14,374 bases of DNA. It comes from a virus (taxonomy: Duplodnaviria; Heunggongvirae; Uroviricota; Caudoviricetes). A program made the position numbers and the translations under genes. Of this stretch, positions 2 through 10,049 are shown one piece after another (positions within the stretch are counted from its first letter, which is position 1; every line of letters begins with the position of its first letter). Location of the stretch: the IMG/VR virus record IMGVR_UViG_2778261203_000003. One strand, given 5' to 3'. Below the pieces are notes generated by a model. That model saw nothing but the letters and a program-made list of their open reading frames with translations, was not told the DNA's origin and did not search any database.

Positions 2-1297
2 TTAATTTTTCATTGCTTCGTTATGGGGCATGGTTGGGGCAAACTCGCTTAACTGTGTATTTAACAAAGCTACCTGTGCATTATTGTTTTCAGACATCCA
101 TTTTCCGTATACCTGAAATACCATTTGCGCATCTGCATGGCCCATCTGGTTTGCTATAAATGCCGGGTTAGCACCAGCTGTCAGCGACCAGCAGGCATAA
201 GTATGTCTCGACTGATATGATTTTCGATGGCGGAGTCCGGCACGTTTTATCGCTGCGTCCCACATCTGCCTTATTGAGTCAACGGTAAAATGGTCACCAT
301 AATTTTTTACTCTCGCTGACACTTCAGGTTGAAAAACAAAGGTGCATTTATGTTTTTCTGTTCTGCCATACTCTCTGAGGTGAACATCAATGATATGCTC
401 TTTGCTCAGTCTCGTTAATGTCATCTGACTCCGGAGAGCGTCGATTGCTGGCTTAATAAGATGAATGACCCGATTGGTTCCCGCCTGTGTTTTTGGTACC
501 GTGAAACGGTCTTTTGCTAAATTTCTCCTGATCATCATTGTTCCATTTTTCAGATCTATGTCCTCCCATCCAAGTGCACACAGCTCACCAGGGCGAACGC
601 CAGTATAAACAGAAACACACCATAAATTTTTGGCTTGCTGATTTCTGCACGCATCGATAAGACGGATGAATTCCTCCCGCGAAAGAGGATCCGGAATGGT
701 TCTTGATTCCTTTAATGGCGAGATCCCCTTAAACGGGTTATCTGCCAGGTAACCGTTATCAACACCAAACTGGAACACGGCGTTAAGATTTGTCATGTAA
801 TTATTTACAGTTACAGCCGATCTCCCTGGTTGTGTAACAATATAGTTACTTTTGGGGATCTGGTATCCAGTCAGTAGCTCTTTACGAACCTCCAGTAATT
901 TTTCTTTATTAATCGATGAGGCAAGATTTTTTTCACCGATTATGCTCAGGATATTTTTGATGACGGCACGGTATGTGTTGAGTGATGTTTTTGCGACTTC
1001 AGTTTCTTTCAGTGCCAGAAATTTTTCAGCCAGTTCTTTTATGGTTAAATCTTGTCGAGTCTCACCAAATTTTTCCAGATTGCGTGAGGAGGGAAACTGT
1101 TTTGCATAGTCGAAAACACCAGTTTTTATTGCGTAACAAACAGAGGCGCGTAGCTCACCTGCAACGCGCCTGTTTTTTGCTGTGTCAGGAACCCCCAGGT
1201 TTTCCCTGACTCTTACGCCTTTATAAACAAACCAGATACGTAATTTCCCTCCATGGTTTTCCACGCCTGTCGGATATTTCATTTCAACTTCTCTCAT
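2..1297 (-). CDS. Phage tyrosine integrase (site-specific recombinase), apparently full length at 431 aa. The start may instead be the second Met at 1282, which gives MKYPTG...
   Basis: ORF track 431 aa. Tyrosine recombinase motifs visible in the translation: TGVRPGEL (box I Arg), SRHTYA (H-x-x-R), QVYGKW (candidate catalytic Tyr). Stop TAA at 2-4 on the minus strand. Sits beside flxA, where K-12 Qin has only an integrase fragment (recollection). Confidence 0.85.
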   Translation of the reverse strand: MREVEMKYPTGVENHGGKLRIWFVYKGVRVRENLGVPDTAKNRRVAGELRASVCYAIKTGVFDYAKQFPSSRNLEKFGETRQDLTIKELAEKFLALKETEVAKTSLNTYRAVIKNILSIIGEKNLASSINKEKLLEVRKELLTGYQIPKSNYIVTQPGRSAVTVNNYMTNLNAVFQFGVDNGYLADNPFKGISPLKESRTIPDPLSREEFIRLIDACRNQQAKNLWCVSVYTGVRPGELCALGWEDIDLKNGTMMIRRNLAKDRFTVPKTQAGTNRVIHLIKPAIDALRSQMTLTRLSKEHIIDVHLREYGRTEKHKCTFVFQPEVSARVKNYGDHFTVDSIRQMWDAAIKRAGLRHRKSYQSRHTYACWSLTAGANPAFIANQMGHADAQMVFQVYGKWMSENNNAQVALLNTQLSEFAPTMPHNEAMKN

Positions 1298-1678: not shown

Positions 1679-2011
1679 TTAGACGTAAATATCAATGGTG
1701 CCAGCGGTATTTGTATCGTCTTTTTTCTCTTCTTTTTTATCAGGCTGAACTGTCGCGTCTTCATTCTTTTTCTCTGCCTGCTGCCTTAACAACTGCTCCA
1801 GTTGAGCCCAGAGGCTTTCAATTTGCTTCTGTACCAATGCAGCCATTTCTTTTTTCTGCTGTGTCGTCATCCCCTCTTCCGATGAGATTTTCCCAAGCTT
1901 TTCAGTCAGCACCTGAATTTGTCTTGTGATTTTGGCTATTTCTGATGTTCCTTCCGGGGCGGAGTTGTTTGAAATAACGGTTGAGGTATTTCCCTGAATT
2001 GTGACAGACAT
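1679..2011 (-). CDS. flxA: FlxA, a FliA-regulated protein of unknown function, 110 aa
   Basis: Translation MSVTIQGNTSTVISNNSAPEGTSEIAKITRQIQVLTEKLG... matches my recollection of E. coli FlxA. RBS AAGGAG about 6 nt upstream of the ATG. A sigma28-type promoter lies upstream (next feature). Confidence 0.85.
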   Translation of the reverse strand: MSVTIQGNTSTVISNNSAPEGTSEIAKITRQIQVLTEKLGKISSEEGMTTQQKKEMAALVQKQIESLWAQLEQLLRQQAEKKNEDATVQPDKKEEKKDDTNTAGTIDIYV

Positions 2012-2142: not shown

Positions 2143-2171
2143 TTGACAGGGGTAAACGTTCGGCAATAATT
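2143..2171 (+). promoter_or_regulatory. Candidate sigma70 promoter, divergent from flxA and reading toward the ydfV/relB region
   Basis: Perfect -35 TTGACA (2143-2148), 16-nt spacer, AATAAT (2165-2170). A perfect 10-bp palindrome CCGCATGCGG (2176-2185) follows immediately. No convincing plus-strand gene lies directly downstream, so its function is unknown. Confidence 0.3.
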
Positions 2172-2213
2172 TTCTGCCGCATGCGGGTGTTGCATAAAAC
2201 GTGTTACGTTCCT

Positions 2214-2519
2214 TTATCGACAGGTCAGGTCACCGCTCACCCGCCGACGAGAAAGCAACACTGACATGCTAAAGCAAAAAATAGATGAATAAGTTGAGTT
2301 GTGCATATGTAGCCTGACCGTCACAAAGTATATGGTGTCTGTACCAGTAAGATGATGGCCGGACTCTTTAAAAACGAGCTGACCTGCACAATACAGGATG
2401 GACTTAGCAATGGCTGCTCCTGGCACAAAGCGGACAGTGATCACCGTTCTTACGACTACTTTCTGACTTCCTTCGTGACTTGCCCTAAGCATGTTGTAGT
2501 GCGATACTTGTAATGACAT
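2214..2519 (-). CDS. ydfV: YdfV-like hypothetical protein, 101 aa; coding status doubtful
   Basis: ORF track 101 aa. Length and position (between relB and flxA) match K-12 ydfV as I recall. Its ATG (2517-2519) lies inside the relO operator and no clear RBS was seen. Confidence 0.4.
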   Translation of the reverse strand: MSLQVSHYNMLRASHEGSQKVVVRTVITVRFVPGAAIAKSILYCAGQLVFKESGHHLTGTDTIYFVTVRLHMHNSTYSSIFCFSMSVLLSRRRVSGDLTCR

Positions 2520-2532
2520 TTGTAATTACAAG
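2480..2532 (+). promoter_or_regulatory. relBE promoter with relO operator
   Basis: -35 TTGCCC (2480-2485), 17-nt spacer, -10 GATACT (2503-2508). Operator CTTGTAATGACATTTGTAATTACAAG (2507-2532) holds two TTGTAAT direct repeats and a perfect 12-bp palindrome TTGTAATTACAA (2520-2531), as in the known relO. RBS AGAGGTG precedes the relB ATG. Confidence 0.6.
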
Positions 2533-2543
2533 AGGTGTAAGAC

Positions 2544-2783
2544 ATGGGTAGCATTAACCTGCGTATTGACGATGAACTTAAAGCGCGTTCTTACGCCGCG
2601 CTTGAAAAAATGGGTGTAACTCCTTCTGAAGCGCTTCGTCTCATGCTCGAGTATATCGCTGACAATGAACGCTTGCCGTTCAAACAGACACTCCTGAGTG
2701 ATGAAGATGCTGAACTTGTGGAGATAGTGAAAGAACGGCTTCGTAATCCTAAGCCAGTACGTGTGACGCTGGATGAACTCTGA
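2544..2783 (+). CDS. relB: RelB antitoxin, 79 aa
   Basis: Translation MGSINLRIDDELKARSYAALEKMGVTPSEALRLMLEYIADNERLPFKQTLLSDEDAELVEIVKERLRNPKPVRVTLDEL is near-identical to E. coli RelB as recalled. Its stop overlaps the relE start (TGATG). Confidence 0.95.
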   Translation: MGSINLRIDDELKARSYAALEKMGVTPSEALRLMLEYIADNERLPFKQTLLSDEDAELVEIVKERLRNPKPVRVTLDEL

Positions 2784-3070
2784 TGGCGTATTTTCTGGAT
2801 TTTGACGAGCGGGCACTAAAGGAATGGCGAAAGCTGGGCTCGACGGTACGTGAACAGTTGAAAAAGAAGCTGGTTGAAGTACTTGAGTCACCCCGGATTG
2901 AAGCAAACAAGCTCCGTGGTATGCCTGATTGTTACAAGATTAAGCTCCGGTCTTCAGGCTATCGCCTTGTATACCAGGTTATAGACGAGAAAGTTGTCGT
3001 TTTCGTGATTTCTGTTGGGAAAAGAGAACGCTCGGAAGTATATAGCGAGGCGGTCAAACGCATTCTCTGA
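2783..3070 (+). CDS. relE: RelE mRNA-interferase toxin, 95 aa
   Basis: Translation MAYFLDFDERALKEWRKLGSTVREQLKKKLVEVLESPRIEANKLRGMPDCYKIKLRSSGYRLVYQVIDEKVVVFVISVGKRERSEVYSEAVKRIL matches E. coli RelE. Translationally coupled to relB. Confidence 0.95.
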   Translation: MAYFLDFDERALKEWRKLGSTVREQLKKKLVEVLESPRIEANKLRGMPDCYKIKLRSSGYRLVYQVIDEKVVVFVISVGKRERSEVYSEAVKRIL

Positions 3071-3141
3071 ACCAAAGCATGACATCTCTGTTTCGCACCG
3101 AAGGTGACACTTCTGCTTTGCGTTGACAGGAGAAGCAGGCT

Positions 3142-3297
3142 ATGAAGCAGCAAAAGGCGATGTTAATCGCCCTGATCGTCATCTGTTTAACCGTCATAGT
3201 GACGGCACTGGTAACGAGGAAAGACCTCTGCGAGGTACGAATCCGAACCGGCCAGACGGAGGTCGCTGTCTTCACAGCTTACGAACCTGAGGAGTAA
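3142..3297 (+). CDS. hokD: HokD (RelF) membrane toxin, 51 aa; absent from the supplied ORF track because it is below the length cutoff
   Basis: Manual translation from ATG 3142: MKQQKAMLIALIVICLTVIVTALVTRKDLCEVRIRTGQTEVAVFTAYEPEE, stop TAA 3295-3297. RBS AGGAG at 3129-3133. Third gene of the relBEF operon. Confidence 0.9.
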   Translation: MKQQKAMLIALIVICLTVIVTALVTRKDLCEVRIRTGQTEVAVFTAYEPEE

Positions 3298-3365: not shown

Positions 3366-3397
3366 AACCCGCTTCGGCGGGTTTTTGTTTTTATTTT
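3366..3397 (+). terminator. Rho-independent terminator of the relB-relE-hokD operon
   Basis: Stem AACCCGC (3366-3372), loop TTCG, stem GCGGGTT (3377-3383), then a T-rich run TTTTTGTTTTTATTTT. Confidence 0.6.
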
Positions 3398-6060: not shown

Positions 6061-6348
6061 TTTAAATGGGGCAATGGTAATGTTGAATCTCATCCCGGGA
6101 CTCATGTCTGTTAACTTATTATTTAGCTGGTGACTTGGTTATTTGCCTGATGTTTAAAATGTTTTCTTCCAGTACAATGTCCCTAAACACAATGAGTCTG
6201 CTTATTATATTATTAGCAGAGCTATTACGGCCAAAGTACAGCATAAGCTTTTAAAGCCAATCAACCAGTCATCAAGACAGACGGGGTTATTCATAAAAAC
6301 TCTCCATGTGTGATCCGATGGGGCCTGAAATTAAAGCTTTAATATAGC

Positions 6349-6561: not shown

Positions 6562-6832
6562 AAAAATTCCTTAATACTGATAACTTGGCGCACTATACAC
6601 ACGTTCCTGAAGAAAGCTATAGTTTTTTGATGGGGTTGAAGATGGCTGGATGTCTAAAATAAACATTGCTTCATATGTTCAACTATGCGTTAATGATTGC
6701 GTCGGTTTGAAGAACAGACGATATACGAAGTAGTTTACTAAAGCAGTTCTCATTTCAGGTGTTATTCACTTATTCCTTCTTTGAGTCTCTCCAATTAAGT
6801 ACGAAGTCGTTTCTGTTATGCAAACCATTTAT

Positions 6833-6845
6833 GCCGAAAGGCTCA
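6833..6845 (+). promoter_or_regulatory. Csp 5'-UTR 'upstream box' element ahead of the cspB RBS
   Basis: GCCGAAAGGCTCA at 6833-6845, close to the GCCGAAAGGCACA element described in the cspA-family 5' UTRs, 16 nt upstream of the cspB ATG. Confidence 0.4.
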
Positions 6846-6861
6846 AGTTAAGGAATGTAGA

Positions 6862-7077
6862 ATGTCAAATAAAATGACTGGTTTAGTAAAATGGTTTAAC
6901 GCTGATAAAGGTTTCGGCTTTATTTCTCCTGTTGATGGTAGTAAAGATGTGTTTGTGCATTTTTCTGCGATTCAGAATGATAATTATCGAACCTTATTTG
7001 AAGGTCAAAAGGTTACCTTCTCTATAGAGAGTGGTGCTAAAGGTCCTGCAGCAGCAAATGTCATCATTACTGATTAA
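6862..7077 (+). CDS. cspB: Cold-shock protein CspB, 71 aa
   Basis: Translation [71 protein letters not shown] carries the RNP1 (KGFGFI) and RNP2 (VFVHF) motifs. Confidence 0.95.
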
Positions 7078-7359
7078 AATTCATCGCTCGTCTGTATACG
7101 ATAACGAAGAAGGCTGATGCCTGAGTAGAGATACGGACAGAGTAGTGAATATTGGATCTCTTTAATAAAAAGTAAGGAGGTCCAATACATGAAACAATGG
7201 CTAGCATATTTGGCAAAATCTTAATCAGGAAAAGTATGCTAACCATTGTGGTGAAGTGCAGGTTTGCTGCATGAATAGTTTTACAGCAGAAGCTAACTGC
7301 TGGCATGGCAAAACAAAGTGCGTAAGTGGATGACTCCCACAAAAAGCACCACAATCTCA

Positions 7360-9386: not shown

Positions 9387-9748
9387 GGTAATATTAAATC
9401 GGAACATTTACATCGCGGAATGTAAAATTTAAATAAAAAGGACTCTTCCATGAGCCAAAATTCCTGAAATCTTAAGGGTAAGATAAAAGGTCTTAATCAG
9501 AATGACACGTTTTATTAATAAATAAAGCTATTCTTTCATTGCTGTGTTTTTCTTTACAAAAGTAATCCTTGCTATGGGTGGTTAATCATGCGTTAATGGT
9601 GTTCTGGTTTGTTACAAATTTATCTGAAGCAGTCATTGTTATAATTTTATTATTTGTACCTCTTGAGATTTCCTTGTTGGTTTTTCTCTCTGATATTTTT
9701 TTTCGGACCATTCTGCCCAAGGGCTAATTTCTTCAAAAGGTAATAATT

Positions 9749-9961
9749 ATGTCTAACAAAATGACTGGTTTAGTGAAATGGTTTAACCCTGAAAAAGGTT
9801 TTGGTTTCATCACGCCGAAAGATGGCAGCAAAGATGTGTTTGTCCATTTCTCAGCAATTCAGAGCAACGATTTCAAAACATTAACTGAGAATCAGGAAGT
9901 TGAATTTGGTATTGAGAACGGACCTAAAGGTCCTGCCGCTGTTCATGTAGTGGCGCTTTGA
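9749..9961 (+). CDS. cspI: Cold-shock protein CspI, 70 aa
   Basis: Translation [70 protein letters not shown] with RNP1/RNP2 motifs. Long AT-rich 5' leader typical of csp genes. Confidence 0.9.
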
Positions 9962-10049
9962 GGTAGACAATATTACAAACCATATTCACTTTAGATGCCC
10001 GTGTTGTCATGGTTCCCAGTATAGAACATCATCTTTTGATGTTTCTGAC

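Follow-up and report, generated by a model that had tools for sequence, protein, structure and literature searches.

The current work concerns a region between flxA and the relBE toxin-antitoxin genes in a window (the whole stretch of DNA analysed, 14,374 nt, IMG/VR record IMGVR_UViG_2778261203_000003) which represents a Qin-type lambdoid prophage of Escherichia coli, in reverse complement relative to MG1655 (window position x = 1648416 - x in NC_000913.3). At 2143-2170 this region harbours a sigma-70-like promoter sequence, to which an earlier note on this DNA had drawn attention. The region was found to be the joint between two blocks, one carrying flxA together with the promoter-like site and the other carrying relBE, which meet inside the annotated ydfV frame. 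The promoter-like site and the genes around it are listed below, with all positions referring to the window and with genes taken from the list of open reading frames (ORFs) and from annotation.

2143-2170, plus strand: sigma-70-like promoter, TTGACA and AATAAT separated by 16 nt, with a predicted start at ~2176-2178
2177-2186, unstranded: 10-bp palindrome CCGCATGCGG, at this predicted start
2061 to 2036, minus strand: pattern match to a sigma-28 (FliA) type promoter of flxA, TAAAGATT-N11-GCCGATA
1679-2011, minus strand: flxA, the cargo of its block, FlxA-like (PF14282, Pfam E = 2.3e-14), annotated in K-12 and relatives
2214-2519, minus strand: ydfV, from the ORF list
2544-2783, plus strand: relB
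2783-3070, plus strand: relE
3142-3297, plus strand: hokD
2-1297, minus strand: integrase gene

The promoter-like site is located where the earlier note had placed it and faces rightward. Its -35 hexamer matches the consensus at all six positions (2143-2148) and its -10 hexamer at five of six (2165-2170), with the A at position 2 and the T at position 6 being retained, such that the site as a whole agrees with the consensus at 11 of 12 positions and ranks first in a promoter scan of the whole window. The claim that it is divergent from the flxA promoter likewise holds, the sigma-28 match being on the minus strand at a distance of ~80 bp, and a dependence of flxA on FliA is said to have been described by Ide & Kutsukake in 1997. 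The 10-bp palindrome which the same note had placed after the promoter is present, but perfect ten-bp palindromes occur in the window at chance frequency (12 as opposed to 15 expected) and it was therefore given no weight. Two other short palindromic sequences, AACGTT (2155-2160) within the promoter spacer and AACGT-GTT-ACGTT (2198-2210) ~25 nt past the predicted start, could represent a regulator site or chance. The promoter had been read correctly from the sequence, but a site of this kind is by itself weak evidence of function.

The stretch encompassing positions 2012-2543 is 100% identical in K-12 derivatives, is present at a coverage of at least 80% in 1,158 of 5,426 complete E. coli genomes, and is also found in the 48.7-kb phage record PhiR42_1, between replication genes and Q. 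Downstream of hokD the plus strand carries rem, ydfU and Q, which are co-directional with relB, relE and hokD.

Two mobile blocks and the ydfV frame across their joint

The flxA block, which contains the 2143 promoter, measures ~1,015 bp (1421-2435). In pairwise comparisons it recurs, at 98.9-99.3% identity and with the same ends, in three settings, namely the Qin type (K-12 and PhiR42_1), a locus by tail-fibre genes (L002) and a different prophage in which it is located between another integrase gene and yfdR (L006/L008), the homology breakpoints being at 1417-1421 and 2435-2438 when the window, K-12 and PhiR42_1 are compared with L002 and L006/L008. The stretch upstream of relB (window 2416-2543), in turn, is found in most of 779 plasmids of Klebsiella, Enterobacter, Escherichia, Citrobacter, Salmonella and others, and in other lambdoid loci different genes replace relBE, homology to the window beginning only at 3128, at a distance of 14 nt from the ATG of hokD. 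Since the flxA block and the relBE block are mobile separately, the region under study represents the joint between two mobile blocks, the limits of which are given below (the A and B types of palindrome are those described in the next section).

1421-1444, unstranded: left boundary of the flxA block, a B-type 24-bp palindrome GTCCGCT-AAGAGCAAGA-AGCGGAA, at which homology to L002, L006, K-12 and PhiR42_1 begins
2412-2435, unstranded: right boundary of the flxA block, an A-type 24-bp palindrome GGCTGCT-CCTGGCACAA-AGCGGAC, hybrid in Qin
2436-3128, plus strand: relBE block (promoter, operator, relB and relE), with the same extent on plasmid L003 (window 2416-3128)
2480-2531, plus strand: relBE promoter TTGCCC (2480)-17 nt-GATACT (2503), with TTGTAAT repeats at 2508 and 2520 and the palindrome TTGTAATTACAA at 2520-2531

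The left palindrome folds at -5.5 kcal/mol (z = -3.5) and shares its motif class with the B sites of the IMG/VR cassettes and with the inner end of the 'right inverted repeat' of P2-EC58. The right palindrome is a hybrid of two sites found elsewhere, its left arm being that of L006 and L002 (the L006 site reads GGCTGCT-CCTGGCACAG-AGCAGAC) and its right arm, along with everything beyond it, being that of the relBE plasmids (GTCCGCT-CCTGGCACAA-AGCGGAC). This arrangement therefore places the crossover inside the 12 nt GCTCCTGGCACA which both parents share. The hybrid forms no hairpin (-1.5 kcal/mol), as opposed to the L006 site (-5.0) and the relBE-plasmid site (-6.3). Site-specific recombination and homologous exchange within the short GCTCCTGGCACA identity would leave the same product. 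As part of the mobile flxA cassette, the promoter owes its location ahead of relBE to the juxtaposition of cassettes.

The ydfV ORF extends across this joint, with its ATG at 2519 in the relBE block, its course through the hybrid palindrome and its stop at 2214 in the flxA block. An alignment of 26 database variants of YdfV splits at approximately residue 33/34: residues 1 to ~33 are joined to unrelated C-termini in Citrobacter, Cronobacter, Salmonella and Enterobacter, and those from ~34 onward (~68 residues) follow at least six unrelated N-termini in E. coli. The N-terminal portion moves with relBE on plasmids of many genera, and the C-terminal portion with flxA in other prophages. In the ydfV frame, on the minus strand, the palindrome specifies V-R-F-V-P-G-A-A (R-S-V-P-G in other contexts), and because it constitutes an open frame, gene callers extend ORFs through the site; this property of the A-type palindrome (V-R-F/S-V-P-G-A-A) may be a general source of spurious chimeric 'hypothetical proteins' at cassette junctions. 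YdfV has no Pfam or NCBIfam family, and a true homologue was returned neither by a word-indexed search of 5.8 billion proteins (31 hits) nor by an exhaustive HMMER search of 1.84 billion representative proteins (21 hits), the hits in both searches being near-identical or chimeric fragments and a few giant repeat proteins, which represent noise.

Judged from these sequence properties, ydfV is probably not a gene but a chimeric junction artefact, and the doubt which the earlier note had cast on its annotation is strongly supported. One of the reasons given for that doubt, namely that the ydfV ATG is situated inside relO, is also borne out: the two TTGTAAT repeats enclose the start codon (CAT at 2517-2519), and the second repeat begins the palindrome TTGTAATTACAA just downstream of the relBE hexamers. 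The hexamers and repeats at 2480-2531 correspond to relBp and relO of the relBE literature.

Although it is a by-product of the joining of two mobile blocks, ydfV is annotated in K-12 and in more than 1,100 E. coli genomes. A study published in 2025 (PMC12288877) regarded ydfV as a gene with a functional part in the relBE toxin-antitoxin system, and described a relBE-ydfV 'excludon', i.e. neighbouring genes with overlapping transcripts, which fell outside its core excludome; in the same study a phenotype of a Tn10 insertion was reversed by relB and not by ydfV. With the ORF being a by-product of joining, phenotypes mapped to 'ydfV' are to be read as effects on the relBE promoter or on transcription across the junction.

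The flanks of the two blocks yielded several further observations. In this prophage the integrase segment and the left flank of the flxA block are contiguous, with their joint at ~1400-1404, and K-12 carries a different remnant (ydfX/ydfW) to the left of the same breakpoint. The corresponding pieces in PhiR42_1, i.e. the integrase segment (1064-2467) and the flank of the flxA block (13038 onward), are separated by ~10.6 kb, and this comparison therefore indicates that the whole early region (xis, exo, cI, cro, O and others) was lost from the prophage studied here. Two older small RNA (sRNA) candidates, C0386 (Tjaden) and IS077 (Chen), map to ~1400-1600 of the window on the plus strand (K-12 equivalent 1289-1600). 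At the same position a tiling array reported a strongly expressed 311-nt transcript (1644840-1645151 in the older v2 coordinates, MG1655 minus strand), which faces the 3' end of flxA in convergent orientation and spans the B-type palindrome. At the opposite side, the relBE block is without a palindrome at its hokD-proximal end. Other lambdoid loci (for example L025, 2615-3274) carry a longer hok-like ORF (70 aa), preceded by ~470 bp of conserved sequence after a B-type site, and the relBE block thus appears to have replaced the upstream part of the hok locus.

Palindrome-bounded cassettes in phages, islands and arrays

A scan of IMG/VR for GTCCGCT-N10-AGCGGAC retrieved more than 120 loci. The loops were found to be non-random and to fall into two classes, A (YYTGGCACRR) and B (..GAGCGA..), and in each class conserved flanking sequence recurs on a single side; for assignment to the B type, arms of approximately GTCCGCT/AGCGGAC and a loop ..GAGCRA.. 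were required. When the arms were relaxed, 41 of 67 adjacent site pairs were of the form B...A, 541-3403 bp apart and in one fixed relative orientation, and a further 14 of the 67 were A-(0-27 nt)-B junctions between neighbouring units, from which it follows that tandem arrays exist. The flxA unit conforms to this arrangement in that a B-type palindrome is present at one end and, in the same relative orientation, an A-type palindrome with the loop YYTGGCACRR at the opposite end, the B+...A+ order of the unit being that of the 41 cassette-type pairs elsewhere and of the P2-EC58 record, and in that it occurs in unrelated contexts with homology ending at the palindromes.

Altogether 42 distinct units were recovered, each with one to three genes. 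As assigned by Pfam and PADLOC, their cargo includes a UG17 defence-type reverse transcriptase, TIR, RelA/SpoT-domain and HNH nuclease-like proteins and a ParA-like ATPase; a HEPN/RES N-terminal-domain cargo gave a weak match below the Pfam cutoff, and a NUDIX and HAD pair along with a VOC/glyoxalase-like protein were named from reading of the sequences only. Arrays are exemplified by L043 (979-3960), L039 (440-2241), L092 (6031-7834) and L124 (1361-4433), among the IMG/VR loci L009-L128, in which cassettes of 0.6-3.5 kb with mixed cargo orientation are separated by a linker of ~18 nt (approximately CAGGTAACTGAGCTGAAG).

P2 tail/late genes and lambdoid nin genes were most often present beside the sites, and among the shared neighbours no recombinase family stood out as common to the palindromes. 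Of the 5,426 complete E. coli genomes, 1,758 contain the A-linker-B junction, which bears no annotation there, and non-phage islands are among its locations. Outside prophages it was observed on the UTI89 chromosome (L129, 5001-5057) and in L130 (5001-5066), its neighbours at such positions being iron-uptake genes and IS100, and GNAT/DUF2971 genes near a YeeP-like GTPase and Ag43. The variants observed in the arms were mostly one-sided transitions instead of compensatory pairs, in a sample which had been selected for perfect arms. The readings rejected from the sequence were a sigma-54 promoter (TGGCAC without TTGC), lambdoid nut boxA/boxB, REP/BIME, ERIC, dif/Xer sites and hix/gix invertase sites.

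Within the window, a further sequence at 6196-6221 (GTCTGCT-TATTATATTATT-AGCAGAG) has cassette-like arms around a 12-nt AT loop; with 0.8 such matches expected per shuffle, this may represent either a decayed boundary site or a chance match. The Rfam cspA thermoregulator was also matched twice over its full length in the csp gene region, at 6701-7093 (plus strand, 158.8 bits) and 9603-9988 (plus strand, 112.8 bits).

The closest known counterparts are the inserts in the Z region of P2-like phages (AJ512679-AJ512683, P2-EC45/46/58), in which a 'left/right inverted repeat' is annotated around an insert of 1-3 kb whose cargo has its own promoter. In P2-EC58 the A-type sequence GTCCGCT-CTGTGCCATG-AGCGGAC ends the 'left inverted repeat' and the B-type sequence GTCTGTT-TTTCGCTCAA-AGCAGAC starts the 'right inverted repeat'. 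Since these records annotate such repeats, the cassette type is already known. The flxA block differs in that it is located in a lambdoid nin region or by integrases and not between the P2 genes G and FI, and in that it carries a second, outward-facing sigma-70-like promoter.

The title of a paper by Nilsson, Karlsson & Haggard-Ljungquist from 2004 proposes site-specific recombination at these repeats. The two recent papers on P2-like hotspots which were searched make no mention of them, and a literature search by motif sequence and by concept gave no direct matches, neither the flxA/Qin instance nor its consequence for ydfV being found described.

Resemblances to three other systems were also noted. 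Like phage morons, flxA is an accessory gene with its own (sigma-28) promoter, opposed to the flanking phage operon and present in different phages, with a lower G+C content (43%, as opposed to 45% for the window); unlike classic morons, which are described as having an upstream promoter and a downstream terminator, it is delimited by two palindromes and has an extra divergent promoter without a gene. With integron cassettes the units share short cargo in tandem arrays, imperfect boundary palindromes, hybrid junction sites and a cargo part of which matches anti-phage defence families. They differ from these in that no integrase or attI was identified, in that the sequence is unrelated to the R and L boxes of attC, in that the cargo has its own promoters, and in that each unit has two distinct sites (A and B), with a 15-18 nt linker in arrays, instead of one attC. 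The PeSL 'mobile regulatory cassettes' (PMC2839356) are likewise reported as conserved stem-loops, linked to promoters, which flank shuffled accessory genes in hyperplastic regions; however, these belong to lytic T4-type phages and have an early promoter as part of the repeat, whereas here no promoter forms part of the palindromes and a single cassette has the 2143 promoter.

Possible transcription from the 2143 site

We consider it roughly a coin-toss whether the 2143 site is an active but product-less, cassette-borne promoter, the transcript of which runs antisense to 'ydfV', toward and perhaps through relBE-hokD; this is the reading which we prefer. On this reading, a sequence-competent sigma-70 promoter is carried by the mobile ~1,015-bp flxA cassette, between its B-type left and its A-type right end, and in Qin-type prophages an exchange within the right palindrome joined this cassette to the relBE block. 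The exchange put the promoter 367-368 nt upstream of the relB start, co-directional with relBE-hokD and the phage early-right operon, and the same event created the chimeric ydfV frame on the opposite strand. If the promoter fires, transcription is predicted to start near 2176-2178 and to generate an untranslated, unstructured RNA, antisense to the whole ydfV ORF and extending into the relBE promoter/operator, where it would either end (through Rho, or through RelB-RelE bound at relO) or proceed across relBE-hokD as far as a terminator-like site after hokD. The 2143 site would then be neither an sRNA gene nor a protein gene, and any effects on relBE or on leftward 'ydfV' transcription would be side effects. 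The features which bear on the fate of such a transcript are the following.

3366-3383, plus strand: terminator-like hairpin and T run after hokD, the first intrinsic-terminator candidate downstream of the 2143 promoter
2181-2267, plus strand: speculative 28-codon ORF MRVLHKTCYVPLSTGQVTAHPPTRKQH, starting 3-5 nt past the predicted transcription start, in frame within an ORF at 2043-2264
2352-2513, plus strand: 53-aa ORF, crossing the junction and overlapping the -35/-10 hexamers of relBE

On the plus strand no terminator-like site was found between 2177 and 3366. The 265 nt at 2176-2440 (plus strand) fold no better than shuffles (minimum free energy z = +0.95), the minus strand being equally unremarkable, and the downstream RNA has no Rfam match even at E <= 10. 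A C-over-G bias of the Rho kind is not strong, with a maximum C/G of 1.6 at 2417-2494. The suggestion that the promoter makes an sRNA transcript is accordingly unlikely: in the absence of a terminator, of structure, of an Rfam match and of a self-contained or annotated ORF, neither an sRNA gene nor a small-protein gene is to be expected here.

The principal alternative, which we regard as clearly less probable though still a serious contender, is that the site is an inactive or silenced look-alike, having arisen by chance in AT-rich acquired DNA (G+C content of 2012-2435, 44%), and that it is unused or gives rise to trace pervasive transcription without consequence. Several results weigh in this direction and against an active promoter. 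The 16-nt spacer is sub-optimal (the optimum being 17) and there is no extended -10 (no TG). In 300 dinucleotide-preserving shuffles of the window, matches of at least 11/12 arose in 29% (mean 0.32 per window), and the promoter-like sites in the window, 20 as compared with 23.6 expected, are at or below expectation. Nothing recognisable lies downstream, and no equivalent outward promoter was present in the other cassettes compared. The hexamers are invariant across four compared cassette copies, as are nearly all other positions, and because the copies are at least 98.9% identical this conservation is uninformative; with at most 11 single-nucleotide polymorphisms (SNPs) per copy of the block, codon-position and hexamer tests were without power. 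Diverged copies of the block were not found among E. coli genomes (by distant blastn), phages, GTDB genomes reached via FlxA (E. coli only) or 120 IMG/VR loci.

Published data bear on transcription from the site indirectly, and are sparse and either neutral or unfavourable to activity. A list of peaks obtained with RpoD holoenzyme by genomic systematic evolution of ligands by exponential enrichment (gSELEX) has a local peak in the relB/ydfV spacer and none in the ydfV/flxA spacer, and a tiling-array supplement contains no novel transcript ending between v2 1643700 and 1644599. For the RpoF (sigma-28) holoenzyme, a strong gSELEX peak was reported at v2 1644248, i.e. ~2192 of the window, in the ydfV/flxA spacer (PMC5493296), which, given the resolution of the method, fits the sigma-28 promoter of flxA. 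The centre of this peak is closer to the sigma-70-like site (2143-2170) than to the sigma-28 promoter (2036-2061), an offset which is probably within gSELEX resolution.

Against a mere look-alike stands the fact that E. coli RNA polymerase will normally bind to and transcribe from a perfect -35 hexamer with AATAAT at a 16-nt spacing unless the site is silenced, and the negative datasets are of low resolution or incomplete.

It is rather unlikely that the site has a selected regulatory role, either as an insulator of flxA or as a second relBE-hokD promoter which escapes RelBE autoregulation, both of which would make it a real excludon partner. In the first case the antisense RNA would block leftward read-through (of the 'ydfV' transcript, or of pL transcripts in L006-type contexts) into the FliA-controlled flxA. 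A role of this kind would be in keeping with the orientation of the promoter, which is convergent with leftward junction transcription and co-directional with relBE, with its accompanying flxA in all contexts examined, and with the report that ydfV and relBE RNA change in opposite directions under four antibiotics (PMC12288877). However, adjacency to relBE is limited to the Qin-type arrangement, relBE works without this promoter on hundreds of plasmids, the other cassettes have no counterpart of it, and relBE-ydfV is not among the core excludons of that study. The published excludon model concerns the same locus and proposes opposite-strand transcripts which overlap around the relBE promoter; it omits any upstream plus-strand promoter, and the present data make ydfV a junction artefact.

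A small protein expressed from the promoter is very improbable. The near-leaderless 28-codon ORF has in its favour its position directly past the predicted start, the fact that it is the only plus-strand ORF which terminates before the cassette boundary, and a lone SNP among cassette copies, which is synonymous. A leaderless mRNA, however, needs an AUG at its 5' end, and A2181, 11 nt past the -10 hexamer, is too far away. The 53-aa ORF, which the earlier note had correctly described as overlapping the relBE promoter, is not self-contained: its frame crosses the junction and has a different continuation in L002 and L006, such that its C-terminus differs by context, and it has no Pfam or NCBIfam match. 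The curated MG1655 record includes no small protein here, though several recently found ones are annotated nearby.

Equally improbable is that ydfV is a genuine protein-coding gene, with the plus-strand promoter merely antisense inside or beside it. In favour of a gene are its annotation in K-12 and by the Prokaryotic Genome Annotation Pipeline (PGAP), the minus-strand RNA reported at the locus (PMC12288877, PMC6505713) and a 74-codon open frame inside the cassette; against it are its chimeric make-up with multiple alternative termini at either end, its want of a family or real homologues, the Tn10 phenotype described above and the lack of a start codon before residue 72 in the cassette-borne part.

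Implications for relBE-hokD and for the cassettes

The promoter is plausible, unannotated, of a known kind and of modest pay-off, and its context, i.e. the cassette, the palindromic ends and the ydfV artefact, is the more useful outcome. What appears to be new here is the flxA/Qin cassette instance and its consequence for ydfV, the cassette type itself being known from P2-like phages.

A more far-reaching interpretation, which is speculative and rather improbable, combines a portable outward promoter, the RNA of which would be the true excludon partner in Qin, with an integron-like exchange system operating on two palindromes. If it is true, the flxA cassette would deliver an outward promoter to whatever lies beyond its A-type end; in Qin this would result in RelBE-independent transcription into relBE-hokD, and the junction antisense RNA, not a YdfV protein, would be the excludon partner. 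The exchange system would furthermore connect the Z/fun hotspot of P2 with lambdoid nin regions, genomic islands and plasmids, and its mobile cargo would include some defence genes, namely those for the defence-associated (DRT) reverse transcriptase, TIR and RelA/SpoT-type proteins.

If the preferred reading of an active, product-less promoter holds, relBE-hokD in Qin lysogens would have an upstream input which is missing from plasmid-borne relBE, a point of relevance to work on relBE regulation in K-12. The boundary palindromes, in turn, tie the locus to the variable hotspots of P2-like phages which are mined for defence systems, and offer both a testable exchange mechanism and a simple delimiter of cargo.

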